Source: an uncultured virus (IMG/VR IMGVR_UViG_2061766007_000731) (taxonomy: Duplodnaviria; Heunggongvirae; Uroviricota; Caudoviricetes). From it: a DNA stretch of 45,612 nucleotides. The notes under the pieces were generated by a model. It was given only the letters and a program-made list of their open reading frames with translations. It ran no database searches and was not told the DNA's origin. The position numbers and the translations under genes are program-made. Shown here in pieces: positions 1-45,612 of the stretch. Positions within the stretch are counted from its first letter, which is position 1. Every line of letters begins with the position of its first letter. Location of the stretch: IMG/VR virus record IMGVR_UViG_2061766007_000731. The stretch is one strand, 5' to 3'.

Positions 1-1330
1 TGTTTTTAATTTCCACGCTCTAGGAATCATATCCTCTTTTTTAATAACCAACCCTTCGTGTGGAACATTATTATTACAATCTGGAGAATTGCATTCCATA
101 AAGAAATTTTCATCATTTGCCAACTCTTCCCAAAATAACATGTTCCAGTTTTCTGCTAATAATAAATCATCTACATCGCCATTACACATTTGATAAAGTT
201 GTGGATATAAATCTACAGCTTTACCATAATATAATTCTTCTACAGGCATTAAACCATTAAGTGTACACCATTGTTGGACTTCTCTAGTTGAAAATTCATG
301 AACTATACCATCTATATTTGTTAATGTTATTCTATATATTCTTACTTTAAAATGTTTTTCAGAAGTATATTTTTCACCATTAGTTGGTGGAACACAACCA
401 TAATCATAATTATTTTGAATGTACGATCCGTTTGGAAGATATCCAACAATTTCATAATAGGCGGTCATACCCTTAATTAAATGTGGTCTAACTATTTTAT
501 CTGCCTCAAACCATACATCTGTATTATAATATCCAGAATTTACATTTTTATTAAAATATTTATTTTTAATTACTGTTCTGGAAGCATATACATAATCATA
601 ATATTTGTATTCGTTATTCCAAGAATTACCTAATAGTACATTTCCTAACTTTTTAAATATATTTAATGGTTTTTTACATAAAATGTATGCTGAAATTCCA
701 GAGGTTCCGTGCCATTTTGATGTAATTTGAATCAAATCGTCTGGTTCTATGCACCAAGGTTCTTTTTTCACTTGTACGGTAGTATAATGAAACCTAAATT
801 GATTATTGTCAATTTTATCATAACCTTTTATTTTTTTGGCAGATGCGTTACTATTTTTACTTTCAACATTTTTTACTTTGGTTTTATATTTTTTACAAAT
901 CCAAATTATTTTATCGTTGTGTTTAATTGAGTCAAATTCGACATTACTTTTAACTTCATTTAATTCTACGTTAATTGTAGTTAAAAGAAAATCCCGTAAT
1001 GTTTTTACTGGAAGTAAAAATCCTTCAGATACTATACCACGTAATCTAATTGCTTTTACTCTACCATNNNNNNNNNNNNNNNNNNNNNTTTTTATTTATG
1101 TGTCTATATAAATTAGCATATGATAATAAATTTTCATTAATTTGAGATAAAGCTGGAAAATAAATATATAAACCTGGCTGTTCGTCTAATCCAACAATTA
1201 TATTGTACCCACCAACATGCACTATTTTTAAGGAATTTGCGTTTGGATGTGGAGTAAAATCAGATTCATTTAAATAAATAATTTTAGCTAGATAATTAAT
1301 ATCGGCTTTTTTACTTTGTATCAGTTCCAT
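1..1330 (-). CDS. RNA ligase, Rnl2/DRB0094-like (runs off window start)
   Basis: N-terminus HPNANSLKIV..GGY and GRVKAIRLRGIVSEG; nucleotidyltransferase motif I TSKWHGTS, YEIVG, HEGLVIK. Frame is interrupted only by the N gap at 1068-1088. All visible Trp codons are TGG. Confidence 0.85.
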
Positions 1331-2261
1331 TTGTAATATTTAATTTTTTACAAAGTTCATCAAAAGAAAGTTCAATTTGATTTCAAATATAATGTTCTAA
1401 TAAATCAGTATTATCATATCCAAACTCATATTCTAAAAGTTTATGTATTATATAATTATATGATTCATAAAACTTATTAGTTTGTAATGCCGCTTGAAAG
1501 TAACTTTCTCTAAACTTTTTATATTCTTTTTCTACATTGTTGTATAATGTTATATAATTTTCTAATTNNNNNNNNNNNNNNNNNNNNNNNNNNNNNNNNN
1601 NNNNNNNNNNNNNNNNNNNNNNNNNNNNNNNNNNNNNTTAGATTCAGAATTTAATAAATTTTCCAAAAGTTTATGCGCATAATTTTTATATTCTCACGGT
1701 GACGACAATTTAATAATTTCCTGATTATCTAATTTAATATCATAATCGTTTATTAATATACAAAAAGAATTGTTTAATTCGTTCATATGATTAATTTTTA
1801 ATTCCTCTAAATTATATGTTAATCTTAAATTATTATATCAATATTCGTCATCAGTCTGATCAAATACACAATATAAATTTAATTTTGATAAATATAAAGT
1901 ACCATTATTGGGTAAATATTTATTAAGAAAACATTTATATTGTATAAACAAACCATTGTTTATAATTTCTGCTTTTTTTTTATTTTGAGTATTGTTGGAA
2001 GTTGACTTTTTATTTTTTCTATATAAGAGTAATTATCATGTATAACTGGAGGAGAAACTAATCAATTAGGATAAAATGCATTATCGGTGGTTAAAGATGA
2101 TACGTTATTACTTACAATATTGTTATCCTTTTGCGTCATGTTGATTTATATCGATAGTTGCCTGTGTATAACCATTACTATATGCAGTATCTAATAAAAA
2201 TTGAAAAAATTCACATTGTTGTGTAGTTAAATTACTAAAAAGTTCTTCTTTAGACATATAG

Positions 2262-2705
2262 TTAATTCATTAACTGGCGTACAAGTTCTAATTTTTTGGG
2301 ATTATTTTTATATCTATTATAAAGAATTGTTAATAATTGAGACTCTGTTATACCAGGAATTTTATATCCATCTTCAGTATAATGTTCGAATATTAAAATT
2401 TGTTCTCTAAATGTTGGCCAATCGTTACACATTTCTTTTAAAATATAACAACTATCGTCATTAATAACAATATTGCTCGGAAAAGATTTTACATAATTAT
2501 TGTTTAAATTTTTACAAGAACTATCAACGAACTTTTGCTTTTTTTGATCTTCGTTTATATTAGATATAACATTTGATTTAGACTTTTCTTGATTTTTATC
2601 TTTATTTTTATCATTAATGTCTTTAACAATATTTTTAGATGCTACTTCTGCTGCTTCTAAAATATCATTAAGAAATTCTGTAAGATTATCGTATTTTTCT
2701 TTCAT
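2262..2705 (-). CDS. hypothetical protein
   Basis: Open frame; likely ATG at 2705 (MKEKYDNL) overlapping the dUTPase end. Confidence 0.55.
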   Translation of the reverse strand: MKEKYDNLTEFLNDILEAAEVASKNIVKDINDKNKDKNQEKSKSNVISNINEDQKKQKFVDSSCKNLNNNYVKSFPSNIVINDDSCYILKEMCNDWPTFREQILIFEHYTEDGYKIPGITESQLLTILYNRYKNNPKKLELVRQLMN

Positions 2706-3156
2706 TATTATCTGTGCTTCCAAATCCTCCCTTACCTCTATCTGTATCAGTAAGATCATCTACTTCTATAAAATTAATTGGTTCTGTTACATTTATATGC
2801 AATTGTAACATTTTATCACCAACTTTATATCTAGGCATATTAGGCATTACATGATAAAAAACTGCCATTACTTCACCACGATATCCTTCATCAATCATTG
2901 CAGTAGTATTAGCAAGAACCATTCCAGTTTTTCAAACACTACTTCTTGGTTTGCCTTCAATACAAAAATTTATATATTCTACTGGTGGACAATTATCATC
3001 TCTAATAATTTCTAAAGCAAACCCTAAGCCGTATCTTCATACGTTTGGAGCAATTTCTTCTTCGCTAACAGCATAGCAATCATAACAAAAATCGTCTATG
3101 TGCGCCTTTTCTGGTATGATAGCATCTGGATGTAATTTTTTAATCTTTATTTCCAT
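2686..3156 (-). CDS. dut: trimeric dUTPase (TGA=Trp)
   Basis: MEIKIKKLHPDAIIP...DFCYD...KPRSSV*KTG...IDEGYRGE...DRGKGGFGST. In-frame TGA at 3037-3039 and 2932-2934. Confidence 0.92.
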
Positions 3157-3352
3157 TTTTTATATATAATGTGCAATGACAAATGTCATTTTCTCTATAT
3201 TCTTTACATGGACATATACGATCCTGACGAGTTTTTCCTGGATTATCACACGGGCATTCAAAATTATTTAATTCACATCGTCTTAAAATAGCATTAACTA
3301 TTTTATCATCAGGATTTAGTATTCAACCATCTTTTCTATAAATTTGAATCAT
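3140..3352 (-). CDS. ferredoxin-thioredoxin reductase catalytic (beta) chain-like protein (TGA=Trp)
   Basis: CPC...CPC...CHC motif set; in-frame TGA at 3323-3325. Confidence 0.8.
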
Positions 3353-3582
3353 TAAAATTTATTTTCAATATAATCAAATGCTTTATCTACTACAGATTCG
3401 TTATCAGAATTATAGTCCATTATATTAAATACATTATCTCCTTCTGTTAACATGTATTCAACACTCGTTGCATGATATCCTAAAACATCTATTACAAAAG
3501 ACTCCAAATCTTCAATATTATCTGGAATATTACGAACAATATCAATATTTCCAGATTCATAATCAAAAATAAACAAATACAT
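3352..3582 (-). CDS. hypothetical protein
   Basis: 76-aa ORF packed between nrdG and the FTR-like gene. Confidence 0.6.
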   Translation of the reverse strand: MYLFIFDYESGNIDIVRNIPDNIEDLESFVIDVLGYHATSVEYMLTEGDNVFNIMDYNSDNESVVDKAFDYIENKF

Positions 3583-3585
3583 ATA

Positions 3586-4053
3586 TTATTTCCAAAATTT
3601 ATAAGTTATATCTTTCATTCAAGAATTTGTTGCTGATTTATATATCGCAAACATTCTTTGATTAGTTGTTATTTTATTAATTGGACCACATTCTTCTTTA
3701 TATGGCCCAATTTTTATATAATCTAGATAATTTACACATTCATGAATTGGTACTACGTGTCTACCAGAATATCACGCAATCTTTAATAGATTATTTTTAC
3801 TGTGGCAATATTTAAATATTTCTAATAAACTATCTAAATCTTGATCACCACCCATAAAACAAACACATGTTATTGCTGGAATTTCTAACATTTTATCTAA
3901 CTCATTGATAGTTAATTCCGTACCAATATCCTCTCATAAATGTTTAGAATGACAAGCTGGACAATGAATGGGGCAACCAGAAATTTCTATAGCTAGTGTA
4001 ATTTCATCAGGTATTTCTGAAAATACAATAGCTTGATTTACATATTTTAACAT
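3586..4053 (-). CDS. nrdG: anaerobic ribonucleotide reductase activating protein, radical SAM (TGA=Trp)
   Basis: EIPDEITLAIEISGCPIHCPACHSKHL* (CxxxCxxC), MGGD, KIA*YSG, YIKIGPY, TNQR. Confidence 0.92.
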
Positions 4054-7000
4054 ATCGTATCTTCTTTTTTAGTATAAATACGTGTTTTTTGTTCTTGCCG
4101 TCTTCCTGCAGATCATCCATTTATTTTAGTTAAATATCCGATAACTCTATCATAGTAATCAATGTGCTTTGAATCACATTTTGGACATACTGTCACAGGT
4201 TGTTTTCCAATTCATCCACAATCTTGGCATTCAGAATTTGGAATATTTCAAGTAAAGTATTGACATCCCACAGAAGCTGCATAATTAATAAGCTTTCTAT
4301 ATTGTTCTACACTCAAATGAGAGTCAAGATTAATATGGGCGGCAGAACCCGTGTTATCACATGTTTCCATGTGCACTGACTATATCTTAACTGAGATTAA
4401 ACTCAGCAATAACCATTTCAACTTACGTACCAATAGTAAGCTTACTCTCCCGATACGGAGATAGTCGATACAGGTTTATAATTATTGATATTAATTTCTT
4501 TATTTTTAAATATTCATTTCTTTTCATTTTTCAAGTATCTTGGAACATTTAAATATCCTCGATCTATTAAATTTCGAAATGCACATTTTGATTTAGATCT
4601 AGATCCAAATTTATTATAACACTCTGTTAAAGAGTGATTTACATAATATTTTCTAATTTTTAAAATTTCCCAATCTTTGTATAAAGCAATTGGATTACGC
4701 TCTCCTTTCAACCCAGTTTGCCTTTTGTGCCAATTTATATTCTCTTCTGTATAAACTTCACAATTTATATCTTTTCAAGTAACTCCTTCTCAAATTTTTT
4801 GAAACGCAGAGAATGATATTTTATTTTTATACATTTCTCAACATTGTTTACAATTAAGTTCACAATTGTCATAAATGCTCCTAATTTGAATTATTTCTTC
4901 GATAGATAATATTGCTCTCGGATTTGCATCAAGTTGATTTCTTTCACCTCCAGCTGTAAGATTATAACCCTTTTCTGGATTTCTGGAATCATAAAATTTA
5001 ATATAATATCGTTCTAATTCTCCAAGTTTTACAATATCATCTGTATTATCTATTTCCTCTATTTTAAAAGATTCAATACCATATTTTCGCATTGCGTTAT
5101 ATAAATGCTTTTTGGCACTTCTTTTACATTCGGCCTTATGAGAAGTTCATCGTTTGTTTAAGGAAAGCGTAGTAAGACCAATATAAATTTTATTATTTAT
5201 AAGATTGGTTATTTTATATATTATCATATCAATAATTATTTTCCCACGGTATTCCNNNNNNNNNNNNNNNNNNNNNNNNNNNACTGGTTAGTGGAAAAGT
5301 TATAACAGGCAGTTTAATCTACCATCTAAATAATCACCTATATATTCAGAACCATGTAATTTTAATTTATCTAGTACAGATATTTCTTTATCATTTGGTT
5401 TAAATATATAACTAGCATAAAGATTTATATCAGAAGGTATTCAGTATCCGTCCTGTTTATCTCAGTTGTAATTTTTTACTGCTAAAGATTCGGCAGGTAC
5501 TTGTTCTGTGTTATATGTAGTTTTTTCGGTTTTATGTAATAGATTTTGTTCTTTTACCGTACTAAATATAAACTGACAGAATTCTTTATATTCTTCATTA
5601 TCATTACATTGAATACCTAAAAATTCAGCAGCTTGATTTAGACCGTTTAAACCTATTGTTAAATATTGTTTATCGAGAGATATAAAATGCGATGAATATA
5701 CTGGAAGTAAACCAGCGTTATACATATCATAAAGTCCTTCGTTATATGCTGTATGATATTTGTAAACTCTTTCTAGAATATCAACTAAGTATTCATAAAG
5801 ATCGGGATATGATTCTCTTGCTCTTTGTTGAGTTCATTCAGGATTTAAATTTTTCATCATATTACTTCAATCTTGAATAATACGATTTAAATTTAATGTT
5901 ATAACTGATTTACTACCAGTCATAACGCCCATGTTACCATTAGTAAAATTAAACTCTTTTGTTTGAAGTTTATTCTTTAAACGACAACAAGACGATAACG
6001 AATCTACTGTATTTGAAATATATGTAAAGAAACTATGCCCTCTTGCATATTCTTCACATACAAATTCAAACATGTCTTTATCAACAAATTCTCCATCTTT
6101 ATATAATAGAGTAACTGATTCTACAGGAAAAGTTAGTATACATTTTAATCTTTCTGCATTAAACCATTGCATAAATTCTTTTTGTAATCAGCATAAAGAT
6201 TCTCATTTTCCTTGTGTGCCGTCTGGAAAATAAAATTCTCCAAACATCCCATCAAAGAACGGTTTATCAAAGTAAGAAAAATTAACAACATAAAATGTTC
6301 CGTATAGGTCGTTAATCTATACGCGTTTATAACTGCTATATGTTACCATATAGATCGGACTATATCATCGCTAATGCGTTCCCTACTTCCACTCACTTGA
6401 GTGTACTCCTTGCGGATAGTCTCTGAACCTGGCAAAGCCTCGGCTGCTGATTATCCATTTCTGGACTTCCCAGCAATTCAGGGAATTTTAAGTGCGCCTG
6501 TTATTTTTTTCTTATCTATGTTTATAACCATGTACTTTAAATAAGTGACATTCTTTACAGTATGTTATCAAATTATTTAAATCATTAAATTCTAGATCCT
6601 CCGTGGCAATTCTATATAATTCGTTTTGATTTTCAATAGGATCTAAATCAGAATGCTCTTGTAGTAATCTATCTAATATTTTAGAAAATGGTTTTATATG
6701 ATGAACTTGTAGTATATGTTTACTTCCGCATAATTGACAGCAATAATTGTCTCTTTCTAAAACCTTTGGAACTTGTTGAACATAAAATAATTCTCGTAAT
6801 CTATAATGTAATGGAGTTATTCCGCCTTTTCAATTTGGGTGTTTTTCTCCAACCATTTGACCTATTTTTGCCTCAGAATTATTACGAATCTGAATATTAA
6901 AATTTTTTAATATTCTGTCAATTACATCTGGTTCACAATTATATTTTTTAGCAATATCGGCTTTAGATAATTTCTGTGTTATATAAAGATCGATTACTAT

Positions 7001-8389
7001 ATCTCTATCTGTTAAATCTTTTGGAAATTCTTTATTATTATAATTTCATTGTGCTTCAGATAAACTTCTTCGCTTAATACCACAATGTTCTAAATGATGT
7101 AAAATTGTAGTTCAAGATGTGTTAAAATATTTTGCTATTTCGGTAGAAGATTTGCCATTCAAGTACATTTTACATATTTCTTCATCGTTTGATGAATCAT
7201 ACTGAGAATATTCTTTTGGTTCTGCTAATATAGTTAATCCAAATTTTTTGTTTCATTTGTAAACAGTACTAATAAATACATTAAAATGTTTTGCTATTTC
7301 TTCTGCAGACATTTTAGCATTAATACATTTTTCTAATTCTTCCTTAGAAATAATAAATTTTTCTTTATTGATATTTCAATTTTTTAACAGACTTTNNNNN
7401 NNNNNNNNNNNNNNNNNNNNNNNNNNNNNNNNNNNNNNNNNNNNNNNNNNNNNNNNNNNNNNNNNNNNNNNNNNNNNNNNNNNNNNNNNNNNNNNNNNNN
7501 NNNNNNNNNNNNNNNNNNNNNNNNNNNNNNNNNNNNNNNNNNNNNNNNNNNNNNNNNNNNNNNNACACGCGTTGTATTAGTACTAACTTTTAAATCAGGA
7601 TTTTGATAATAATTATCACCTCATTCTTTACGAGCAAAATAATCAAAGTATAATAAAAATTCAGAAGTTGCCACAGCTCCAGCAAACATCGCTGAAGTAG
7701 CAAATATAAGATTAATGTACATTCCGCAGAAAGAATCTAAATTCTTAGGAGCGGCAGAAAGACCTCCTAAATTTTTAATACCATCTGTTAAAAATGGATA
7801 CATTGATATACTACAACAATATGGTGCAATAGCTCCAGCAAAAGAACTTTCATCATGCTTATATATAATATGATGTTCAAGATCACGTATATACTGTTTA
7901 CAATCAAAATCTGGATAAAGTTCTTTTAATTTATCCATTATCATTTTTCTAGATATTTGAATATTATCTGGCTTATGAATTTCAGCATTTAATATTCCAA
8001 TATTTTTACTTTTTACATTAGAGTTATCATCAATAGTGGCATCGGCTGNNNNNNNNNNNNNNNNNNNNNNNNNNNNNNNTTATAAATTCTTCTTTCTCTG
8101 CAACTCAATCTCTAACTCTATTATGTTTCTCACGATAAAGTATATAACTTTTTGCTACATCATAATTTTCTGTTATCATTAAACATTCTTCAACTAAATC
8201 TTGAATAGTTTCAACAGATAGGTCAGATCAAGCATTTAGTCTTATTTTAACTAATTTTAAAACACGAGTTATATTATCCAAATTATCTTGATCTGGCCTA
8301 GTAGCATTAAAAGCAGATGTTATAGCTGTTTCAATTTTAGAAAAATCAAACTCTTGTTCACTACCATTACGTTTAATTACTTTGGTCAT
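4047..8389 (-). CDS. nrdD: class III anaerobic ribonucleotide reductase, 3 exons (8389-~7500, 6288-5321, 4349-4047; TGA=Trp)
   Basis: ATP cone VIKRNG, IYKHDE, SSCCRL, VPAESLAVKNYN*DK, C-terminal Zn ribbon, and glycyl-radical motif RVIGYL. Confidence 0.93.
4350..5320 (-). mobile_element. group I intron (nrdD intron 2)
   Basis: Removal restores DG^GSAAH. P1 GGUAG/CUGCC contains the U-G pair. Core elements AATACCGTGGG, GTATCGACTA, AAGATATAGTC; terminal G at 4350. Confidence 0.92.
4442..5227 (-). CDS. intron-encoded GIY-YIG homing endonuclease (TGA=Trp)
   Basis: MIIYKITNLINNKIYIG...KR*TSH...GYNLTAGG; 262 codons when TGA is read through. Confidence 0.88.
6289..7500 (-). mobile_element. group I intron (nrdD intron 1); 5' splice site lies in N gap 7396-7564
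   Basis: Core AATTGCTGGG, AATCAGCAGCC, TTCAGAGACTA, GATATAGTCC at 6350-6490; terminal G at 6289 before TT GTT AAT (F-V-N-F-S-Y-F-D). Confidence 0.88.
6512..7312 (-). CDS. intron-encoded HNH endonuclease with N-terminal HTH repeats (TGA=Trp)
   Basis: HPN*KGG...ERDNYCCQLCG..LQVHHIKP...NLITYCKECH; start codon uncertain. Confidence 0.82.
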
Positions 8390-8399
8390 TAAACAAAAA

Positions 8400-8705
8400 T
8401 TATTTCATTTTTACATTTAATTCAGGCTGCATTTCCTTAATATAATGTTTTTCTCACTTTATTGCCTGTTCTTTAGTATTACATATTTTAATAACAAAAA
8501 ATGTAATAATAGAATCTGAAGTAATAAATTCTTTAATATTTCGGTTACATGTTAACTTTTTAAAACTTAGGATATGTTCCCTTCATCTAATTTTAAAATG
8601 TCTTGATGTTTGACCGATATATAATTTTTTACCCTTTATATTTTCTATATAAAAGCCGTATACCCCAAATGCAAAAAATGCAGCACTTTCATAAATAATC
8701 TTCAT
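8400..8705 (-). CDS. small free-standing GIY-YIG nuclease (TGA=Trp)
   Basis: GVYGF...LYIGQT...IR*REH...*EKHYI....PELN; 102 codons. Confidence 0.78.
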
Positions 8706-8721
8706 TTTTATCTCTTATTTA

Positions 8722-8759
8722 ATAAATTGGGCTAGATTATGACATCTAGCCCAATTTAT
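8722..8759 (-). terminator. hairpin, probable intrinsic terminator
   Basis: 16-bp perfect inverted repeat ATAAATTGGGCTAGAT/ATCTAGCCCAATTTAT immediately after the stop codon at 8763. Confidence 0.7.
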
Positions 8760-8762
8760 AGT

Positions 8763-9263: not shown

Positions 9264-9295
9264 AAAATGAAATTTTTTATTATTTATTCTAAATA

Positions 9296-36386: not shown

Positions 36387-36439
36387 NNNNNNNNNNNNNN
36401 NNNNNNNNNNNNNNNNNNNNNNNNNNNNNNNTTTACTTG

Positions 36440-36515: not shown

Positions 36516-36520
36516 ATGTA

Positions 36521-36563
36521 AGAATTTAGTTCAAATGATTCTAGCCAACTGAACTAAATCCCG
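36521..36563 (-). pseudogene. tRNA 5'-half remnant folded back on itself
   Basis: CGGGATT-TA-GTTC-AGTTGGCTA-GAAT (acceptor strand + D arm) followed by TGAACTAAATTCT, complementary to its own 5' end. Confidence 0.55.
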
Positions 36564-36566
36564 TAG

Positions 36567-36638
36567 TAGCGGGAAATGGATTTGAACCATTGACCTTTAG
36601 CTTATGAGGCTAACAAGCTACCACTGCTCTATCCCGCT
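36567..36638 (-). tRNA. tRNA with CAU anticodon (Met; Ile2 not excluded)
   Basis: UUAGC-CUCAUAA-GCUAA; acceptor AGCGGGA/UCCCGCU; GTTCAAATC. Confidence 0.85.
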
Positions 36639-36976
36639 ATACATTCTTCCATTACAATTTTTACTATAATATCTAAATTCATCATTATTTGTTGATAAAT
36701 ATCCCATTTTTCTTCATGTTTTTGACATGGCCAATCAACTAAAATAATTTCATATTCACATCTACCCCAAAATTGATACATAGATTCATCTTTGACAAAT
36801 TGTTTAAATTCATCAAATGTAACTGGTACATCAAAATACTTATCATACTTATTATCAATTCTCTTATGATGAAAATCTATTCTCTTTTGATAACAATTTT
36901 TTAGATAAGGTATTATGTCATAAGCAATAAACTTCTGTCTATTACAATCGTAATTTATTACATTAAAACTTTTCAT
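36629..36976 (-). CDS. hypothetical protein
   Basis: YDIIPYL...YQFWGRCEYEIIL..WP...DIYQQI..N; stop codon lies inside the tRNA(CAU) 5' end. Confidence 0.7.
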   Translation of the reverse strand: MKSFNVINYDCNRQKFIAYDIIPYLKNCYQKRIDFHHKRIDNKYDKYFDVPVTFDEFKQFVKDESMYQFWGRCEYEIILVDWPCQKHEEKWDIYQQIMMNLDIIVKIVMEECIAG

Positions 36977-36991
36977 AATATTTAAAATTAG

Positions 36992-37076
36992 AGCCAGAAG
37001 CCGGATTCGAACCGACGGTGCGCATAAGCATCTTGATTACAAGTCAAGCGGAGTCGACCAGCTGTCCCATTCTGGC
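36992..37076 (-). tRNA. tRNA-Thr(UGU) with long variable region
   Basis: GCCAGAA/UUCUGGC with U73; CUUGA-CUUGUAA-UCAAG; 14-nt variable region; GTTCGAATC. Confidence 0.82.
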
Positions 37077-37108
37077 AAATTTCCCATTTATTCTCTGGGA
37101 ACAGGAGA

Positions 37109-38326
37109 TTAAATTAATTCAGTGGTATTAAAAATATGGTCTTCAATATCTGTACGTTCACCAATTAAATCACCAAGATTTCTTTGTATTTCTGTACATA
37201 ATTTACACTTAATTATGTTTTTAATAAGATCTTGTGAAATATCTTGTGGATAAATATTAACAACCAATTCTTCTAAATTAGATGGAATATATCCAGATTC
37301 TGAAGCAATTAATATTGCATTAAATATATAAATCCAAAAAATTATTTTATTAAGATTATAAGATGGTCTTAAAAATCTAAACTCAATAGTTTTTCCGGTA
37401 TTATAACATAATGCGTTTATAAAATTTACAAAAAAATACCTTGTATGAATATTCCATTTTCTTTCGTGTGCAATATCAGCAGGATGTGGTTGATGTAAAT
37501 CACCAAAATAATTTAATCCTACCATATACTTATATAATTGTTGAAAAGATGAAAATACCGTTGGTAGCATTTTACAATAATCTTTTCCAGTGTTTTTATA
37601 TAATGACGATTTAAATGTGTATTCAGGTACAATACTTGCAATTTGATTTTGCAAATTTACACAAATTTGATAAACATTAAATATAAAGTTAGGATCTAAT
37701 TTTATATTCCCTAAATGAATATGAAGTGAACAATTTTTATCAAAATATGTGTATTCTTTCATGGTATCGATTTGTTGTTTTAAAAGATTCAATCCATCGT
37801 TACCATCTAGAATAACAGTTGAATATTCGTTTCCACTAATAGATCCATCTCTTAATGGAATTAATCCGTCTCTAAAACATATATTCTCTGGAATAATTCC
37901 GGTTGCTGTTTCAAATTCAACACCTAATGTATATTTAAGAAAATGAGATAATTTAAAATCTATTTTATCATTGACAATTGTTTGTTTGTTTTTAAATAAG
38001 TTTAAGTGCTTATTTGCTCCATATTCTTTTATGAACGTATAATTATATCCAGTGGTGGCACCATATTTACAATATATAACTTCAGATTGATCAACCAATT
38101 CATCTAATAATTGATAAATACCAATAGATTTGTTAAAAACGACACGATTTTGAAATTTTTCTTTATTATACCAAAGACAAGTTCCATGATGGTTTAACTC
38201 AATTAGTTTACTAACATCTGTCGTATATTCGTAGATTTTAATACCATCTATAACATCATTGACAAAACGAATAGAACAATTTATATGTTCATACTTTTTA
38301 GTAAAAAAATCTTTAACCAAAGGCAT
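37109..38326 (-). CDS. putative amidoligase (COOH-NH2 ligase, glutamate-cysteine ligase fold)
   Basis: LGVEFE, DGSI.GNEYST, CSLHIH, RY..VN, TIEFR. Confidence 0.82.
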   Translation of the reverse strand: MPLVKDFFTKKYEHINCSIRFVNDVIDGIKIYEYTTDVSKLIELNHHGTCLWYNKEKFQNRVVFNKSIGIYQLLDELVDQSEVIYCKYGATTGYNYTFIKEYGANKHLNLFKNKQTIVNDKIDFKLSHFLKYTLGVEFETATGIIPENICFRDGLIPLRDGSISGNEYSTVILDGNDGLNLLKQQIDTMKEYTYFDKNCSLHIHLGNIKLDPNFIFNVYQICVNLQNQIASIVPEYTFKSSLYKNTGKDYCKMLPTVFSSFQQLYKYMVGLNYFGDLHQPHPADIAHERKWNIHTRYFFVNFINALCYNTGKTIEFRFLRPSYNLNKIIFWIYIFNAILIASESGYIPSNLEELVVNIYPQDISQDLIKNIIKCKLCTEIQRNLGDLIGERTDIEDHIFNTTELI

Positions 38327-38338
38327 AATTTAAATCTC

Positions 38339-39439
38339 CTATTTTTGTTCTATAAATTTAGACTTACTAAAAACTAAATCATAGTCTTGGTTAAAAACAC
38401 TTTTTATACATTTACCACTATTAAATTCTCTAATAGAAGATCGTCCTAAAACATAAATCTGTCCAGTAAATGGTATATATCCAATTTCAGAAATTGCTAC
38501 ATAAGCATTATTGTTTTCAATAAAAACTTTATCTGTAGAATAAAATCTAATAAATGTAATATTGCGCTTTATAAATTCATCTAATGTTAATCCAGATTTT
38601 TTATACTTTTTATTAATTATNNNNNNNNNNNNNNNNNNNNNNNNNNNNNNNNNNNNNNNNNNNNNNNNNNNNNNNNNNNNNNNNNNNNNNNNNNNNNNNN
38701 NNNNNNNNNNNNNNNNNNNNNNNNNNNNNNNNNNNNNNNNNNNNNNNNNNNNNNNNNNNNNNNNNNNNNNNNNNNNNNNNNNNNNNNNNNNNNNNNNNNN
38801 NNNNNNNNNNNNNNNNNNNNNNNNNNNNNNNNNNNNNNNNNNNNNNNNNNNNNNNNNNNNNNNNNNNNNNNNNNNNNNNNNNNNNNNNNNNNNNNNNNNN
38901 NNNNNNNNNNNNNNNNNNNNNNNNNNNNNNNNNNNNNNNNNNTAACCTTTTCTATAGTCCACAGCTACAAAAGCTGTACCTCCATTATATTTATCTAAAA
39001 CATCAAATCCATTATAATATAAAATTAAAGCCAAAACTTGAGAATCTGATAATTTATCGTAATCGACTTTAGGAATAAATTCTTTTGCTAGGTCTTCATA
39101 ATTATGAATAGTTCCATTGTGAACTAATACAAAATCAATATCACCTTTTTCATTCTTAATTATAATAGGATGCGCTTTTTCAACAGTAATTCCACCTATA
39201 CTAGCTTTTCTATCATGTCCTAACGCGATTTCGCAAATTTTTGTATTATTCAGTAATTCACTATCCCAAAAAAACTCTTCAAACAAAGCTTTTTGGCCAA
39301 TACCGTATTCTACTTTACCATCAATAAAAACTCCACATGAGTCACCTCCTCGACGATCGTTAGTAATACCAAGTATTTCAAAAATATCTTTTCTAAAAGC
39401 TTTAGGACCGTTGTTTATAATTCCATAAAGACCACACAT
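38339..39439 (-). CDS. class II (Ntn) glutamine amidotransferase
   Basis: MCGLYG, RGGDSCG, GHDRKAS, AHP, HNGTI.N, SDSQ. Confidence 0.88.
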   Translation of the reverse strand: MCGLYGIINNGPKAFRKDIFEILGITNDRRGGDSCGVFIDGKVEYGIGQKALFEEFFWDSELLNNTKICEIALGHDRKASIGGITVEKAHPIIIKNEKGDIDFVLVHNGTIHNYEDLAKEFIPKVDYDKLSDSQVLALILYYNGFDVLDKYNGGTAFVAVDYRKGXXXXXXXXXXXXXXXXXXXXXXXXXXXXXXXXXXXXXXXXXXXXXXXXXXXXXXXXXXXXXXXXXXXXXXXXXXXXXXXXXXXXXXXXXXXXXXXXXXXXXXXXXXXXIINKKYKKSGLTLDEFIKRNITFIRFYSTDKVFIENNNAYVAISEIGYIPFTGQIYVLGRSSIREFNSGKCIKSVFNQDYDLVFSKSKFIEQK

Positions 39440-39440
39440 G

Positions 39441-41800
39441 TTAGTAAAGTAAATGATATTTTTTAATTAATTGTGTAGCTAATTCTACATCACCATTATT
39501 AATAGCGGTATTTATATATGAAGGATCTGGCAATAAAAAAGAGTTATTATAACTACTAATAGCTTTCATTACTTGCGTATATACAAATTCTATTAATTCT
39601 GGACTTTCCATCATTGCACTAGATAGACTACGATATTCAAACATCTTGGTTCTCTCCAAGATAAGACTTTACCTTCATCTTCAGCATTACCTGTTAAGAG
39701 TCTCCCGTCAAGTCGTTACACCTTCCTCTATTAAGAAGCTTGGCTCGGTATTCCTTCTGCTGGTTCACCGAATTTGAGAGATCTTCGAATATTATTTCTA
39801 ATATTCTGGGCCTTATCATATTTTCTTTTTAGAAAATAATGAGCAGAATCGTATAAATAGTCAAAAANNNNNNNNNNNNNNNNNNNNNNNNNNNNNNNNN
39901 NNNNNNNNNNNNNNNNNNNNNNNNNNNNNNNNNNNNNNNNNNNNNNNNNNNNNNNNNNNNNNNNNNNNNNNNNNNNNNNNNNNNNNNNNNNNNNNNNNNN
40001 NNNNNNNNNNNNNNNNNNNNNNNNNNNNNNNNNNNNNNNNNNNNNNNNNNNNNNNNNNNNNNNNNNNNNNNNNNNNNNNNNNNNNNNNNNNNNNNNNNNN
40101 NNNNNNNNNNNNNNNNNNNNNNNNNNNNNNNNNNNNNNNNNNNNNNNNNNNNNNNNNNNNNNNNNNNNNNNNNNNNNNNNNNNNNNNNNNNNNNNNNNNN
40201 NNNNNNNNNNNNNNNNNNNNNNNNNNNNNNNNNNNNNNNNNNNNNNNNNNNNNNNNNNNNNNNNNNNNNNNNNNNNNNNNNNNNNNNNNNNNNNNNNNNN
40301 NNNNNNNNNNNNNNNNNNNNNNATTTTGATTAATATATCCACAATGAATATGAACAAATTTGTTATCTTATAGGCTTTTTATCCTATAATTCTTACAGTC
40401 TAGCTATTCTGTAAGTTCAGCATATATTTTCATCCTATATATTATATAGGAGTAATTCACTCTTGGGGATATTTTATTCTCTTTCGAGGTTCAATCCCTA
40501 TGCGTTANNNNNNNNNNNNNNNNNNNNNNNNNNNNNNNNNNNNNNNNNNNNNNNNNGATATGCTTTAATTTTATTATATTTTCTAATCATATAAATTTCA
40601 GCATTTTCGTATAAGAAATTATATAATTTTTGTATTTTTTGAGGTTTATCTTTATTATTAGCCGATCATCTTAAATGATAATATTTACAAGTTTTTCCTT
40701 GTTTTTCATATAATTTATATGTTAAACCAGTATATTTGTTAATTAATTCACCAACTTGTATTATTCAGGTTTTATTTGGACTAACAATAGAAGGAGTAAA
40801 TATTCCATCGTGTTGTTCAAAGGAACCATCACCATCTATATATCCTCTAATTAACGCGCCTCAATATTTTTCTGATATTTTGTCAAACGGAAAATTAAAA
40901 TTAGTAAAAGTTTTATTTGGACCTAAATTATAGTTAGCAATATCATTTACCATATCTTTGGAAGTTCATCGTAATCGCACTTGAGTTTTACGTTTTATAT
41001 ATCCGTTTTGATAATTATATTTACTAACTTTTAAATCTCCTAGTTCTTTTGCTAATTCTTCTAATATATACCCGTCTTCTTCTTGTATATTAAAAGAAAA
41101 TCTTCCGTTACATCGTTGTTTTTTATTTATAGTTACACAACCATCTGCAATAAAAAACCCTAAAAAATAGGCTTTTTTATCACTATTTATTTCAGAAAAA
41201 TAATTTACATTCATAATTGTAATTTTAAAAATTAAAAATCTCTTGCTGGTGTAAATATACACATTAATCTTTAAAATTACAAATAATTTCTTATAGTTTT
41301 TTTTGCTTCTCGTCTACCGTTTTTGAATTATTCTTAGTATTAGTTACCTAATACAAGGGCCTCACATTGACCCCGCACCACGACCATTTGAACTTTTTGC
41401 CTCTGGTTTAGGATTTGCTTTCATTGTGTACACATTGTAATCAGGATCACAACNNNNNNNNNNNNNNNNNNNNNNNNNNNNNNNNNATCTTCATCAACTA
41501 TTTCATAAGCGGAACATTTAATATCGTAATTTGAATTAATTCGTTTGACAAAACAACGAATATAATTTTTCATATATTCAATATTATGTATCCATTCTTC
41601 AACAGTCCTACATGGAGGAATATTAAATTCAGCTAAAATATTATCAGTTTCANNNNNNNNNNNNNNNNNNNNNNNNNNNNNNNNNNNNNNNNNNNNNNNN
41701 NNNNNNNNNNNNNNNNNNCAGAAGATACAATTTTATTAGTAGATGTATCAATAATAAATAATTCAGGATCTGCTCCTAGAGTAATTGATTGTACGTACAT
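39441..41800 (-). CDS. phiEco32-like COOH-NH2 ligase type 2, 3 exons (41800-41370, 40354-gap, 39641-39441)
   Basis: LGADPE, DNILAEFNIPP, CDPDYN, RGAGF^HIHCG, EYRSLS. Confidence 0.85.
39642..39866 (-). mobile_element. group I intron (ligase intron 2) with the C-terminus of a probable LAGLIDADG ORF; 5' part in N gap
   Basis: AAATTCGGTGAA, AATACCGAGCCAAG, GTAACGACTTG, AAGGTAAAGTCT; terminal G at 39642; upstream frame YLYDSAHYFLKRKY. Confidence 0.82.
40557..41214 (-). CDS. intron-encoded LAGLIDADG endonuclease (TGA=Trp)
   Basis: KAYFLGFFIADG and ALIRGYIDGDGS motifs; YNFLYENA..MIRKY. Confidence 0.87.
41252..41283 (-). promoter_or_regulatory. intron-internal Bacteroidota-type promoter (1 mismatch)
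   Basis: TTTG-N20-TATATTTA about 40 nt upstream of the ATG at 41214. Confidence 0.55.
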
Positions 41801-42311
41801 GTTAAATAATTAATATATTCAGAAATAGATGTTTTTGAAATGTACTGTGGATTTAATCCTAGTAATAAACAAAATGGTTTTTCTTCGGATTTTAATANNN
41901 NNNNNNNNNNNNNNNNNNNNNNNNNNNNNNNNNNNNNNNNNNNNNNNNNNNNNNNNNNNNNNNNNNNNNNNNNNNNNNNNNNNNNNNNNNNNNNNNTGGT
42001 ACGCATTCATATATTACGTCATCTGTCGTATTATGTACTTGAAGAGAGTTATTTTTATAACATTGCTTTATAGAACTTTCTTTAAAAATATAAGTCCCCC
42101 CATAACGCTTAATAAGAAATTCTAATCCTGTTTCTTCAATTCCTATTACCAATTTATCCTTTGAAATTTTATTAAACTTCATTGCAGCGGATCTATAATT
42201 GAAATGATTAGAAAATATAACAATATCCGCGTTTGATACATCTGCAACAAGTTCAAAATTTGCTAAAAAGTTAAAATACTCTGGATTATTTCCAATTATC
42301 GCTACTTTCAT
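41776..42311 (-). CDS. degenerate class I glutamine amidotransferase-like protein
   Basis: MKVAIIGN...ELV.DV..ADIVIF parallels the N-terminus of 42893-43509 but lacks GGED and the catalytic Cys. Confidence 0.5.
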
Positions 42312-42892
42312 GATTTTTAATTATATGATAAGCTTTAATATAAATAGGACAATTCTTGTTAAAAAGTTCTAAGTTAATTTCATCAAAATCTGAAGGTAAT
42401 TCGCACTGAGGTATGTCTGCTCTANNNNNNNNNNNNNNNNNNNNNNNNNNNNNNNNNNNNNNNNNNNNNNTGCTAATAATGTCTTTCTTTCGAAGAATTG
42501 TCAAATCTGTTCCAAAAGTATGAATATTAACATTAAAACTATCTTTGTGAACAGAAGCTATTACATTAAAAAGATTTATAATAGATTCANNNNNNNNNNN
42601 NNNNNNNNNNNNNNNNNNNNNNNNNNNNNNNNNNNNNNNNNNNNNNNNNNNNNNNNNNNNNNNNNNNNNNNNNNNNNNNNNNNNNNNNNNNNNNNNNNNN
42701 NNNNNNNNNNNNNNNNNNNNNNNNNNNNNNNNNNNNNNNNNNNNNNNNNNNNNNNNNNNNNNNNNNNNNNNNNNNNNNNNNNNNNNNNNNNNNNNNNNNN
42801 NNNNNNNNNNNNNNNNNNNNCAGATTCGTGAATATCAAAGTCTTTTGATTTATGTTCTGAAGATCCATATCTTACATGATAACCATATACAT

Positions 42893-43509
42893 TTAACGGA
42901 TGCATTGTAGTATAAGATTATTTAACATATCATGAAGTTCGTCGTATTCCATCATTTCGGGATGGCCTTGAATTCCAAGACATATTGGTTTGTTTAATTT
43001 ATGATAAATTGTAATTTCCGGTTCTTTTATAATTTTATTTGGATCAATTTTATCACCTTCATATTTAGTAGAACGATGATTTGCCCAAAATAATATTTCA
43101 TAATCATTTTTATCAAGATCAAATGGATNNNNNNNNNNNNNNNNNNNNNNNNNGTTATTTGATATTTTTCACCTTTAGAATTAACAATTTCATGAGTTCC
43201 CCAAATAGCATGGTTATTACAATTTTGAACTAACTTACCTCCGTTAAGACAACAAAGCAATTGAGACCCACGGCAAACTCCTACAACTAATTGATTTATA
43301 GACACTTGATCAAATATTTCTTTTTCATAAGCATCTCTATTAGGATAACAATATGTTGTAGGATGCTTTTTACATCCATAAAAACTAGGAGTTACATCTT
43401 CACCTCCTGTAAAGAAAACTATGTTAGCTTCTTTAATGTTAGAGACTAATTCACAATTTTTAATCCATTTTGTGTAATCAGTCATATTACCAACAACAAA
43501 TACTTTCAT
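42893..43509 (-). CDS. class I glutamine amidotransferase / peptidase C26
   Basis: FTGGEDV, GVCRGSQLL, GG.LVQ, GIQGHPE. Confidence 0.88.
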
Positions 43510-43571
43510 ATCTTCTTTATTAAAAATAAAGAAAATGCCCACAGTACATTTTCTTTATTTATTTTCAGTTA

Positions 43572-44612
43572 TTAGTCCTCGTTTTCATTTTCAACTACTT
43601 CAGCTACAGGAATGTTAGCAGGAGTTGGGGCAAATATGTTACCAAAAGGATTTTGTCCGCCATTAAGCATGGAGAACATTAACATATCCTTAATATCAAA
43701 ATCACCGTCTCCAGCCATAAGAGCAAAAAGCATCGGATTTTGAGTAAGAGTTCCGCCATTCTGCGTCATCATCATTAAAGGAAGAAGAGACGAATTTTCA
43801 TCATCCTTAGAAAGAGCAAGAAGCATCAAAGGATTCAACTGACCGTCAACAAGACCAGTATAAGAAATTACTACACGAACTGTAGCTTGACCAAGAAGGA
43901 AGTCCTTAATAGGATAAATGTTAGATCCATTGCCAGTATAACCAACAACGCAAATCTTACCATCTTTAATGCTCTTTACTTTAGCATAGGACTTTGAACG
44001 ACAAATAACATCACCAGGTTTAAGTTGTTCAAATGGCTTAGCAATGGTGTAAGCGGGTACAGGAAGAACTGCTTCTACAGGATAAGAAACAAGTTTAAAA
44101 TTATTATCGATGGCGACATAACCTTCTGTGGTTTCGACACAAATATTGCCATCCATGGCAATACGAACGTCAGTTGCTTCCGTAGGATAGAACTGTGCCT
44201 TAAGACGTTCACCAAAATTCTTAAAGGAATTCTTCATCTCAGGTTTTGAATTTGTTGTGTTAGTTTTTGAAAGTAAAGGCTTAGCGTATTGACACCAAGT
44301 CTCAAATTTAATACGATTCTTGACAGACGTAATATTAGCTTTCTTCAGGTTATAATTACGAGCAAGATTGTCAATATAAGCGGCGTCCTCACCAGTAAGC
44401 TGATCTACAGGACGATCGAAGGTTTTGAGAACATACAGACTATTACCTTTATCAGTACGAAGATTGTCACCAACCTGTACATTTTCAAGATAACTATTAA
44501 GGCCAACCTCAGCGATATAAAACTTAGGCTTGCCCTTTGCAAAAGCAATAACTTGCTCTAAATTTTTAGGCTCAAAACCAATGTTAGAAGTGTAAATAAT
44601 AATACGATTCAT
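43572..44612 (-). CDS. hypothetical protein with Met/Leu-rich C-terminal repeats
   Basis: Intact 346-aa ORF; NPLMLLAL, LLPLMMM, NPMLFALM, DMLMFSML. Confidence 0.8.
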   Translation of the reverse strand: MNRIIIYTSNIGFEPKNLEQVIAFAKGKPKFYIAEVGLNSYLENVQVGDNLRTDKGNSLYVLKTFDRPVDQLTGEDAAYIDNLARNYNLKKANITSVKNRIKFETWCQYAKPLLSKTNTTNSKPEMKNSFKNFGERLKAQFYPTEATDVRIAMDGNICVETTEGYVAIDNNFKLVSYPVEAVLPVPAYTIAKPFEQLKPGDVICRSKSYAKVKSIKDGKICVVGYTGNGSNIYPIKDFLLGQATVRVVISYTGLVDGQLNPLMLLALSKDDENSSLLPLMMMTQNGGTLTQNPMLFALMAGDGDFDIKDMLMFSMLNGGQNPFGNIFAPTPANIPVAEVVENENED

Positions 44613-44693
44613 ATAAGTCTATTGTATTTTTAAATAAAGAATCTATACTGTGGACATAGATCTTTGTTGTTAATAATTCCGTTAATATTTTAG

Positions 44694-45195
44694 TTGTGGC
44701 GGCNNNNNNNNNNNNNNNNNNNNNNNNNNNNNNNNNNNNNNNNNNNNNNNNNTCAACTCCTTCATTCTCTAAATGAGAAACATTTGCCTTTTCAGCTTGT
44801 TAGTTGTTGTTTGTGGTCTGGACTATACCTTCTCCGTATTGAAATCTTGCAAGTTCGTGACTTATCCCTATTACTTGGGGGCTCTCAAAAGCTACATTCT
44901 TTGTCCTTATTATTTCAACTTAGGCGCTCTCCGTCTAGTCTCTACACACTGTCTATAGCTCCGACTTTTATTTTCTGAACTCTTTCGAGGGCCATCCTAG
45001 CTAATAACATTGGCTCGGTATTAACATATTGGCGATAAGCGAGCTTTTCAAGTCCTGCATTACTGCATCCTGCGCTCNNNNNNNNNNNNNNNNNNGAATT
45101 TGGAGAGTTCTACATTAATGATTTCTCATTAAGCATTCAGATTATGATTAAGTTCCGTACTAAAATCCCATGTCTTGCCGTTAGACGACGCCACA
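44694..45195 (-). tRNA. intron-split tRNA with a Gln-like body (anticodon unresolved)
   Basis: 5' half UGUGGCG-UC-GUCU-AACGGCA-AGAC-A-UGGGA-UUUU at 45195-45162; matching 3' acceptor CGCCACA-A at 44701-44694; the rest of the 3' half is in N gap 44704-44752. Confidence 0.8.
44730..45161 (-). mobile_element. ORF-less group I intron in the tRNA anticodon loop (ends approximate)
   Basis: P3 CUCUCC (45107-45102)/GGAGAG (44932-44927), AATACCGAGCCAA (45022-45010), GTGTAGAGACTAG (44947-44935), AAGGTATAGTCC (44831-44820). Confidence 0.88.
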
Positions 45196-45202
45196 ATCAT
45201 TT

Positions 45203-45412
45203 TTAATAAGTTTCGTAAATTAATTTAAGTAATTTTTCAAATTCAATATCACGTTCGTTTTTAGTAGAAAATTTTAATTTCTTTATAACACCTACGCAAA
45301 AGTAAATAAGAATGTTATAATTAATATCATTCGAATATTGAATATCTTGCTTTTCAATATAAGAAATATTATTTACAATAATACTGCAATTTTTATAATG
45401 ATATGCTCTCAT
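45203..45412 (-). CDS. hypothetical protein
   Basis: 69-aa ORF ending just before the split tRNA. Confidence 0.55.
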   Translation of the reverse strand: MRAYHYKNCSIIVNNISYIEKQDIQYSNDINYNILIYFCVGVIKKLKFSTKNERDIEFEKLLKLIYETY

Positions 45413-45612
45413 AAATAAAATTAATACTTTTATTTCATCTGTCGGAGGAAAAAGTATTAAAAACCCGAAAGTCCGCGAGTGTTGGGTTGATCTGTTATAA
45501 CGTTTACCAACTGTCTTATGTTTAGTATCTCATTCAACTTAATGACTACGGATACCCGTTTTGATACGACATAAATGGAATTTGCCACTCTCTCGCCCTT
45601 TCTTATTTCTTT

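Follow-up and report, generated by a model that had tools for sequence, protein, structure and literature searches.

Gene-by-gene exclusion of TGA tryptophan codons within the recoded replication region of an uncultured, probably crAss-like phage

The IMG/VR record IMGVR_UViG_2061766007_000731 is a 45,612-nucleotide stretch of DNA from an uncultured virus of the Caudoviricetes, referred to below as the window. It has a GC content of 25% and carries a tRNA gene with the anticodon UCA, an opal suppressor, together with many genes in which TGA stands at tryptophan positions. The distribution of these TGA codons is divided sharply by gene. They predominate in the genes for replication and deoxynucleoside triphosphate (dNTP) supply and in the homing endonuclease open reading frames (ORFs), are absent from a small set of genes interspersed among these, and are almost absent from a long block upstream. 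Every recognisable gene lies on the minus strand, with expression running from high to low coordinates. Genes were identified by Pfam (66) and PHROG (50) scans of stop-to-stop frames translated with table 4; since 4375 bases are masked as N, in 41 runs, all TGA and TGG counts for the window are lower bounds.

The right part of the window, read from 45.5 to 26 kb, begins with GATase I, a COOH-NH2 ligase gene split by a LAGLIDADG ORF, GATase II and an amidoligase, and continues with tRNA-Thr, tRNA-Met and tRNA-Pro, an HNH endonuclease, a metallophosphoesterase, tRNA-His and a second phosphoesterase containing a group I intron. It ends with an IMPDH/GMP-reductase-like gene, tRNA(UCA), an AAA ATPase, GroEL and small ORFs. 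The left part, from 26 to 1 kb, opens with RNase H, a family B DNA polymerase (PolB, three exons), an SF2 helicase, a DnaB-like helicase (two exons) and Sak4 (two exons). An SSB-like gene, primase, a small resolvase-like gene, a DUF5664-HAD gene, a PD-(D/E)XK exonuclease, NrdD (four exons), NrdG, dUTPase and RNA ligase follow, with seven homing endonuclease ORFs scattered among them. The resolvase label reflects a sub-threshold Hjc match (E 0.0045), and the PHROG scan gave no family match for the SSB-like gene.

TGA and TGG were counted in 53 curated genes, in frames trimmed to the likely start or to the part supported by homology. Frames with a doubtful reading or mostly masked sequence were left out (TGA/TGG in brackets): 17207-17635 (1/1), 24782-25138 (5/2) and 39731-40378 (0/0), as were 42286-42849 (1/1) and 44690-44941 (5/0, without a start codon). 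The recoded block at 1311-26034 contains 16 replication and dNTP-supply genes, here called permissive, with 60 TGA and 6 TGG codons, alongside the seven homing endonuclease ORFs. Five interspersed genes, here called exempt, hold 0 TGA and 23 TGG, an outcome with a chance of about 1e-24 at the permissive rate. The upstream block at 26053-45538 comprises 20 non-endonuclease genes, including GroEL, the AAA ATPase, the two phosphoesterases and the ligases, and five tRNA genes; its 20 genes have 1 TGA and 31 TGG. Homing endonuclease ORFs total 33 TGA to 2 TGG, with at least one TGA in all nine. The initial annotation, made from the sequence alone, had described just this pattern, with TGA in the replisome, dNTP genes and endonucleases, TGG alone in certain genes between them and in nearly all genes to the right of about 26 kb, and the counts bear it out.

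A single genome-wide rate of TGA use is rejected. None of 20000 permutations reached the observed heterogeneity across the 44 genes with a tryptophan codon (statistic 131.7, permuted maximum 73.8), and the same result, 0/20000, was obtained for the 21 non-endonuclease genes of the left block on their own. The distribution is bimodal: among the 23 genes with at least three tryptophan codons, eight stand at 0% TGA, 15 at 71% or more and none between, and overall 25 of the 44 genes hold TGA. TGA occurs 268 times out of frame in the TGA-free genes of the right block, so its in-frame absence there has no compositional cause. The switch falls between 26053 and 26034, inside a single minus-strand array, and all replisome genes lie on the recoded side. 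Upstream of it the block is dual-coded in the sense used by Mgcod, giving the same translation under codes 11 and 4.

The first recoded gene, RNase H (25567-26028; Pfam RNase_H, E 7.5e-31), follows the last TGA-free ORF after about 25 bases and has 6 TGA and no TGG. PolB (20824-23866), matched by phrog_1252 on three ORFs, has 8/0 and is interrupted by a GIY-YIG/NUMOD endonuclease ORF at 21776-22444 (6/0). NrdD (4047-8410), with Pfam NRDD and ATP-cone matches on four ORFs, has 12/1 and encloses a GIY-YIG endonuclease ORF at 4442-5287 (5/2) and an HNH endonuclease ORF at 6512-7576 (5/0). The DnaB-like helicase has 4/0, the SF2 helicase 5/2, primase 4/1, NrdG 3/1 and dUTPase 2/0. The assignment is weaker for the SSB-like gene (1/1), Sak4 (1/0, its one TGA being at the edge of exon 2) and the resolvase-like gene (1/0).

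Among the exempt genes, the exonuclease (9329-10279; Pfam DUF3799, phrog_412) has 0/4 and the DUF5664-HAD gene (11299-12057; Pfam PF18909, E 9.5e-15; phrog_37590) has 0/7. The latter, which forms the core of the conserved TGA-free island described below, encodes an N-terminal domain resembling dATP/dGTP diphosphohydrolases (DUF5664) fused to a domain with a DxDxV-type motif. RNA ligase (1-1330; phrog_968), which runs off the window, has 0/9, and the remaining two are orf2262 (0/1) and orf25224 (0/2). These totals differ by one from those first reported for RNA ligase (eight) and the exonuclease (five). Within the upstream block, TGA is found in two endonuclease ORFs, an HNH ORF at 35254-36339 (phrog_1271; 3/0 in the visible part) and a LAGLIDADG ORF at 40498-41212 between the COOH-NH2 ligase exons (Pfam LAGLIDADG_3, phrog_4645; 4/0). 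The only sense or terminator TGA among the 20 other genes is in orf30878 (30878-31159), an unannotated frame of 94 codons with an in-frame TGA at codon 48, which is either a 47-codon gene terminated by TGA or a small recoded gene.

To set the window in context, we used two large IMG/VR phage records reached through the primase and the AAA ATPase. The first (G001) is 176,795 bp long, has terminal repeats and is rated 100% complete; the second (G002) is 146,798 bp and rated 84% complete. Their primases are about 57% identical to that of the window, and orf30878, which has no family match, also has no homologue in either genome. Alignment with these genomes shows that TGA occupies tryptophan positions: at the 39 shared tryptophan columns of permissive genes, in-frame TGA aligns with TGA or TGG and, in rare cases, with F, Y or R. 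Family models for RNase H, NrdD and PolB extend across the TGA positions, and all four shared tryptophan columns of RNase H are TGA in all three genomes.

The suppressor tRNA gene (29826-29900, minus strand, 75 nt) was found by ARAGORN and scores 59.8 bits against the Rfam tRNA model. ARAGORN labels it SeC from the anticodon only. The molecule folds as a cloverleaf without a long variable arm and has G as discriminator base, a feature of bacterial tRNA-Trp; it would presumably be charged with tryptophan. The gene sits at the downstream end of the TGA-free block, 3.8 kb upstream of the first TGA-bearing gene and in the same orientation. The order tRNA(UCA), AAA ATPase, GroEL, small ORFs, RNase H, the last being the first TGA-rich gene, is the same in the window, G001 and G002. 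TGA at tryptophan positions, a phage tRNA(UCA) and a TGA-free block holding the suppressor gene, the last as also seen in G001 and G002, are features of phages with block-wise TGA-to-Trp recoding and their own suppressor, which would further have a host that uses the standard code.

The suppressor tRNA of G001 (L014:187-280, corresponding to G001 80187-80280, minus strand) is unusual in form. Its 94 nt fold into five arms, with two tandem 5-bp stems bearing 7-nt loops, CUUCAAA (anticodon UCA) followed by CUCCAAA (anticodon CCA, Trp-like). This double-anticodon pattern was seen in one of the five complete relatives searched and may represent either a decoy for Trp-tRNA synthetase or an artefact.

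What selection acts on the TGA codons can be judged against composition. As a neutral yardstick we took the codons for Lys, Glu, Gln, Leu(TTR) and Arg(AGR) and asked how often their third base was A rather than G. This fraction came to 0.879 for permissive genes, 0.87 for the five exempt ones and 0.855 for the upstream block. With so equal a bias, the exempt genes are not compositionally foreign. The TGA fraction of permissive tryptophan codons, 60/66 or 0.91, agrees with the neutral expectation of 0.879 (binomial p = 0.57). TGA is spread uniformly along the permissive genes (Kolmogorov-Smirnov p = 0.55 in the window, with the same outcome in G001 and G002), and no concentration in the first 80 or so codons was seen in the window. 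Codon turnover separates the classes: TGA and TGG differ between genomes at 16 of the 39 shared tryptophan columns of permissive genes, but exempt and upstream genes show no such difference at any of 23 columns (Fisher p = 1.8e-4). Given the neutral frequency and even spread, the selection that is visible acts against TGA in exempt genes, as the initial annotation had proposed for the TGG-only genes, and neither the frequency nor the placement tests reveal any selection favouring TGA in the replisome. A site-specific cause, with TGA kept away from critical tryptophan residues, is rejected on the strength of conserved PolB and RNase H columns that are TGA in all three genomes. Downstream of TGA, base +4 is enriched in A and depleted in C (pooled p = 1e-6), an effect that stems from G002, is not seen in G001 and is confounded with local AT content.

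The same partition is seen in the larger genomes. The minus-strand array of G001 opens with a TGA-free tRNA block of about 50 kb with 18 tRNAs and 25 TGA to 202 TGG, and G002 is similar. The TGAs of the G001 block are mostly in endonuclease-like ORFs, before probable starts, or within the last few codons, like terminators. The G001 replication block is bimodal by gene (85 TGA to 81 TGG), with 26 genes holding TGA and nine TGA-free genes of at least three TGG. PolB has 8/0, 8/2 and 7/0 TGA/TGG in the window, G001 and G002, and RNase H 6/0, 6/1 and 4/1. The exempt genes remain exempt: RNA ligase has 0/9 and 0/5 in the window and G001 and no match in G002, the exonuclease 0/4, 0/7 and 0/2, and the DUF5664-HAD gene 0/7, 0/6 and 0/6. 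In both G001 and G002 the exonuclease, the DUF5664-HAD gene and two genes of unknown function form one contiguous TGA-free island; for the unknown exempt genes, PDB sequence searches and NCBIfam gave nothing above threshold.

Recoding in these relatives reaches well beyond replication. The late blocks of G001 have 202 TGA to 196 TGG, with G002 similar, and the plus-strand arrays encoding portal, endolysin, capsid and the giant genes of the RNA-polymerase block are recoded too, at TGA fractions of 0.46-0.58 in G001 and 0.72 in G002. With RNA-polymerase and structural genes recoded in the complete relatives, recoding does not single out replication, and the view that it marks the replication module in particular is not supported.

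Conservation of the split was followed further by an IMG/VR scan with an alignment of the DUF5664-HAD protein, which yielded 20 loci with their flanks; counts were taken within matches to each query. The loci fall into 16 clusters at 90% identity and seven at 80%, and as they are related the counts are not independent events. The exonuclease has 0 TGA to 113 TGG in 19 loci and the DUF5664-HAD gene 0 to 123 in 20 loci (0 to 236 together). The two unknown genes, of 433 and 292 aa, have 1 to 87 in eight loci and 0 to 41 in seven, and RNA ligase has 0 to 10 in three. The surrounding genes give primase 86 to 32 (20 loci), DnaB 63 to 21 (18 loci), SF2 helicase 69 to 21 (14 loci), orf19004 51 to 15 (16 loci) and PolB 29 to 12 (seven loci). 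Island genes thus total 1 TGA to 374 TGG, as against 298 to 101 in these five neighbours, and at the level of sequence the split is conserved in the relatives. No in-frame TAG was found in the matches to window genes in the 20 loci; the 433-aa query from G001 had three. The first stop after island orthologues is mostly TAA. At 3 of 20 DUF5664-HAD loci it is TGA, yet the same happens at PolB and primase loci, and the feature therefore does not discriminate. GroEL, the SSB-like gene and Sak4 are nearly TGA-free across relatives, and the window is the lowest-GC and most TGA-saturated member of the set.

Two loci of more distant relatives (L002 and L003) serve as an outgroup. Their primase is 48% identical to that of the window and the gene order from SF2 helicase to exonuclease is the same, but their primase, DnaB, SF2 helicase and orf19004 genes together hold 0 TGA and 33 TGG. 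Since the outgroup keeps its replication genes free of TGA, the clade of the window seems to have gained the recoding of this module secondarily.

These comparisons also dispose of the possibility that the TGG-only genes were recently acquired or merely lag behind in time, a reading we reject. One upstream gene at 43572-44618 is a compositional outlier of the kind it predicts (GC 0.37, A-ending fraction 0.52). The island genes, however, share the third-position bias of their neighbours, are as divergent among relatives as the neighbouring primase (44-67% identity as against 57%), and are syntenic in the 20 loci and present in the outgroup. They hold 1 TGA in 375 tryptophan codons over seven lineages below 80% identity, and the high turnover in permissive columns (16/39 compared with 0/23) argues against a mere lag.

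The identity of the phage was likewise judged through its relatives. The best tblastn matches of the PolB exons are DNA polymerases of uncultured crAss-like phages, at 48% identity. No structural genes lie in the window; the relatives with a 57%-identical primase measure 147-177 kb, and one of them has a Crass_capsid match (E 2.4e-9) and portal matches. From these, the window is probably part of a large crAss-like phage of the Zeta group, with a full genome likely around 150-180 kb. The phage is one of the cattle gut; the sequencing runs listed for 19619-29400 are of DNA, mostly from bovine gut, with no RNA runs among them.

In the parts of the literature considered here, Zeta-group phages have crAss-type capsid, portal and terminase genes, genomes of 145-192 kb, a complex replication module and many tRNAs and introns, and Yutin et al. 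(2021, PMC7886860) illustrate a Zeta-group PolB in four fragments with TGA in exons and intron ORFs (Fig. 7c) while placing reassignment in crAss-like phages mostly in late genes. The Zeta phage Lera has TGA in TerL, RNA polymerase and helicase, most of its 41 recoded ORFs being structural (PMC12386605). The system described here resembles these in the large genomes of its relatives (147-177 kb), the many tRNAs including Sup-TCA, the dense introns and homing endonucleases, the split PolB with TGA in exons and intron ORFs, the TGA in helicase genes, as in Lera, and the recoded RNA polymerase genes of the relatives. Recoded replication genes and recoded endonucleases are accordingly already in this literature, and the premise that published recoding mainly concerns late structural and lysis genes is outdated, with TGA reported in PolB, helicase and other replication genes. 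The parts considered of the Zeta-group papers stress late-gene confinement and give no per-gene TGA/TGG partition, nor do they describe TGA-free genes conserved inside the replication block. The published crAss-like layout is matched by outgroup loci L002 and L003, with their TGA-free replication genes.

Borges et al. (bioRxiv 10.1101/2021.08.26.457843) proposed that early genes use the standard code and late genes a recoded one, with phage suppressor tRNAs. In the portions considered, their replication genes use the alternative code 'variably' (Jade, Sapphire, Agate, Topaz) or 'mostly' (Lak; Figs S4, S5), recoded stops show family-specific enrichment or depletion, and in Agate phages TGA is preferred by the endonuclease of a group I intron that lies within an early gene. 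The window agrees with this in its presumed early genes compatible with the standard code, its suppressor tRNA in standard-code DNA upstream of recoded genes, its gene-family-specific recoding and its TGA-rich endonuclease inside a TGA-free region. The emphasis and statistics of that work fall on lysis and structural genes, with integrase as a depleted family, whereas the contrast here is inside the replication module of a lytic-looking phage and permissive TGA is neutral rather than enriched. In what we have drawn from Mgcod (Pfennig, Lomsadze and Borodovsky, bioRxiv 10.1101/2022.06.29.495998), the code switch follows a switch of coding strand and replication and transcription genes sit in the dual-coded block. 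The upstream block of the window is dual-coded as there, but, unlike that layout and that of Fig. 4A in Borges et al., the switch lies inside a co-directional array with the replication genes on its recoded side, and the recoded block itself contains dual-coded islands of 1-3 kb. The window system is therefore a variant of the published mid-infection genetic-code switch, differing in the switch within a co-directional array, the fully recoded replisome and the small conserved TGA-free island. It is the conserved island inside a recoded block that looks new; it did not turn up in full-text literature searches or in the parts of the papers considered, though supplementary tables may hold per-gene data.

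On balance, the explanation we consider probable is a stage-dependent code, in which TGA is barred from genes read by naive host ribosomes and other genes are left to drift. We infer that the host uses the standard code and that the phage tRNA(UCA) changes the reading of UGA during infection. Unmodified host machinery would translate the TGA-free set, that is, the upstream tRNA-carrying block plus the exonuclease, the MazZ-like/HAD nucleotide hydrolase and the RNA ligase. The TGA-tolerant set would comprise the replisome, dNTP-supply genes and homing endonucleases here, to which the relatives add virion and RNA polymerase genes. Under strong AT pressure the permissive tryptophan codons would have drifted to mutational equilibrium at about 90% TGA, and in the clade of the window the permissive set would have grown, as a derived trait, to take in the replication module. 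Full-length replisome proteins could not then be made before the suppressor works, a delay of replication that would presumably matter to the phage. DNA breakdown, dNTP hydrolysis and RNA repair are early host-takeover roles in other phages, and by analogy the functions of the island and of RNA ligase fit such a role.

Beside these results in the early block of G001 (75200-126200; L013-L016), we noted six ORFs whose sole TGA lies within the last 12 codons, with TAA or TAG close behind. Such 3'-terminal TGAs are as expected if TGA ends the gene early in infection and a back-up stop limits read-through later.

Several observations weigh against timing as the whole account. The assignment of TGA-free genes to early infection is read from their position and gene content. 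The late major capsid gene of G001 is TGA-free (0:6; Pfam Crass_capsid, E 2.4e-9), so timing is not the only cause of avoidance, and membership of the exempt set varies to some extent: NrdG lacks TGA in six of nine matching relatives and dUTPase in three of three matches, yet both are recoded in the window. The island is gapless among recoded genes, with overlapping ORFs at its upstream edge in G001. A scan of 8500-28400 found no terminator-like sites at the 26-kb boundary or around the island, and the same region has 140 sigma-70 promoter-like sites where 138 are expected. The Bacteroidetes -7 box (TAnnTTTG) within 100 nt before starts gives no class signal (exempt 1/5, permissive 1/16, endonuclease 2/9, upstream block 1/20). 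Lacking a boundary terminator or class-specific promoter motif, a separate early transcript for the island is not visible. Non-Trp codon usage, moreover, puts the island of G001 nearer its recoded neighbours than the tRNA block, and is ambiguous in G002. A second force probably acts alongside timing, namely avoidance of TGA where yield matters or truncated products harm. Within the scanned region the strongest terminator-like structure is a 16-bp perfect hairpin at 8722-8759, between orf8763 and the GIY-YIG ORF at 8400-8714.

Taken as the sole cause, such sensitivity to yield or truncation, with UGA suppression competing with release factor 2 and high-output or truncation-harmful genes avoiding TGA whatever their timing, is somewhat unlikely, although it could explain the island and the capsid gene and could be combined with timing. 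It accounts for the G001 major capsid gene and its two neighbours (0:1 and 0:3) standing TGA-free among recoded late genes, for the absence of internal stops in the capsid matches of two further relatives (G005 and G006), and for the near absence of TGA from GroEL, the SSB-like gene and Sak4 across relatives. GC at the third codon position (GC3) is also highest (0.23-0.25) in late TGA-free genes, and the TGA fraction of the giant late G001 genes (0.46-0.58) is below the neutral 0.77-0.83. It is less comfortable with the capsid gene of G002, which has two TGA in its first segment, and with genes of at least 3000 codons holding 15-23 TGA, for which late suppression must be efficient. Nor are the exonuclease, nucleotide hydrolase and RNA ligase expected among the most abundant proteins, and the contiguous tRNA-holding TGA-free block (about 20 kb here, about 50 kb in G001) is left unexplained.

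The initial annotation had suggested instead that accumulation of the suppressor tRNA gates the start of DNA replication. In its strong form, with selection keeping TGA in replisome genes in order to time replication, this is unlikely. Every recognisable replisome gene does have TGA, nearly all tryptophan codons of PolB and RNase H are TGA in the three genomes, and the suppressor gene lies just upstream in the window, G001 and G002. Yet TGA stands at its neutrally expected frequency, shows no 5' bias and flips freely with TGG in 16 of 39 conserved tryptophan columns, late genes are recoded too, and the outgroup relatives live with a TGA-free replication module. What survives is that, in a standard-code host, the replisome would need UGA suppression; because TGA is neutral in frequency and placement, occurs in late genes and is missing from the replication module of some relatives, the partly supported reading is of a gate that would follow from the pattern of TGA tolerance and would not have been shaped to this end. 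It is very unlikely that the host natively reads UGA as tryptophan (a Mollicutes-type code 4), the TGG-only genes then being due to chance or recent import. The 25% GC and the 91% TGA share of permissive genes do resemble native code-4 genomes, for which the material considered from the Mgcod study gives a TGA share of 80-90%. Nothing in such a host, however, would bar TGA from 20 genes here (1:31), from about 50 kb of G001 (25:202) or from the outgroup replication module, or confine it, terminator-like, to the extreme 3' ends of early G001 genes. The crAss-like affiliation also speaks against it, as does the expectation, from the part of Borges et al. considered, that about 90% of genes in phages of recoded hosts carry in-frame TGA, compared with 25/44 here.

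A stronger form of the stage-dependent code, possible but in our view doubtful, would make the opal suppressor a true checkpoint between two translational programmes, with the replisome and everything later waiting for it. The set made by naive ribosomes would be the tRNA/auxiliary block and the island (exonuclease, MazZ-like/HAD hydrolase and two unknown genes) with RNA ligase, and its tasks would be to break down host DNA, reshape the nucleotide pool and repair tRNA. If this were true, the TGA-free gene list would be an evolutionary readout of functions that precede, or are independent of, the code switch, and the spread of TGA into the replication module, absent in the outgroup, would be a code frontier moving through the genome over evolutionary time.

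Timing of gene expression is the role ascribed to stop-codon recoding in phages, but experiments that bear on this are scarce and the patterns published so far are those of late genes. The present case offers a sharp natural contrast within one array, where adjacent or overlapping genes are either neutral for TGA or absolutely TGA-free over deep divergence, and so gives a testable list of proteins predicted to be made before or without the suppressor. The outgroup with its TGA-free module, the partly recoded relatives and the saturated window form a comparative series for the spread of a code through a genome. For annotation, neither a single code nor a block model fits such genomes well.

The evidence bearing on a standard-code host is indirect, and includes the avoidance of TGA itself and the crAss-like affiliation. 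In addition, only 2 of 46 starts have a Shine-Dalgarno-like motif before them, and there are seven copies of the Bacteroidetes-type promoter motif TTTG-N18-22-TAnnTTTG where 2.5 are expected, a number reached in 1 of 100 shuffles. Six of the sites are on the coding (minus) strand, at 3564-3596, 9296-9327, 10977-11007, 16100-16131, 16853-16885 and 22624-22655. CrAss-like phages are linked to Bacteroidetes in the part of Yutin et al. (2021, PMC7886860) considered. Three sites stand just upstream of the homing endonuclease ORFs at 10312-10945, 15203-16144 and 21776-22444, as if these had their own promoters.

Tryptophan codons of either kind are rarer in the upstream block, at 8.0 per 1000 codons as against 16-18 in the other classes, a scarcity not seen in the early block of G001 (17.9 per 1000). 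RNA ligase (1061-1339 and 1-1095) changes reading frame across a masked run of 21 N, and GroEL (27517-28284 and 26727-27620) across one of 88 N. Both G001 orthologues are single ORFs, and a small intron, a frameshift or the masking itself may be the cause. The second phosphoesterase gene (phrog_547) is split by a group I intron at 33072-33293 on the minus strand (Rfam RF00028, 74.3 bits). The frame at 44690-44941 (minus strand), which stays open over 84 codons when read with table 4, contains five TGA and no start codon, and its translation looks non-coding; Rfam gave no match at the gathering threshold, and the stretch may be an intron or another RNA. The compositional outlier at 43572-44618 (minus strand) is a 348-codon gene with no family match, whose GC of 0.37, GC3 of 0.28 and A-ending fraction of 0.52, as against about 0.87 elsewhere, make it a candidate recent import. 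The amidoligase, GATase II, COOH-NH2 ligase and GATase I genes cluster at 37109-44618, and this cluster, with the IMPDH/GMP-reductase-like and dATP/dGTP-diphosphohydrolase-like genes, suggests a chemistry of nucleotide or DNA modification.

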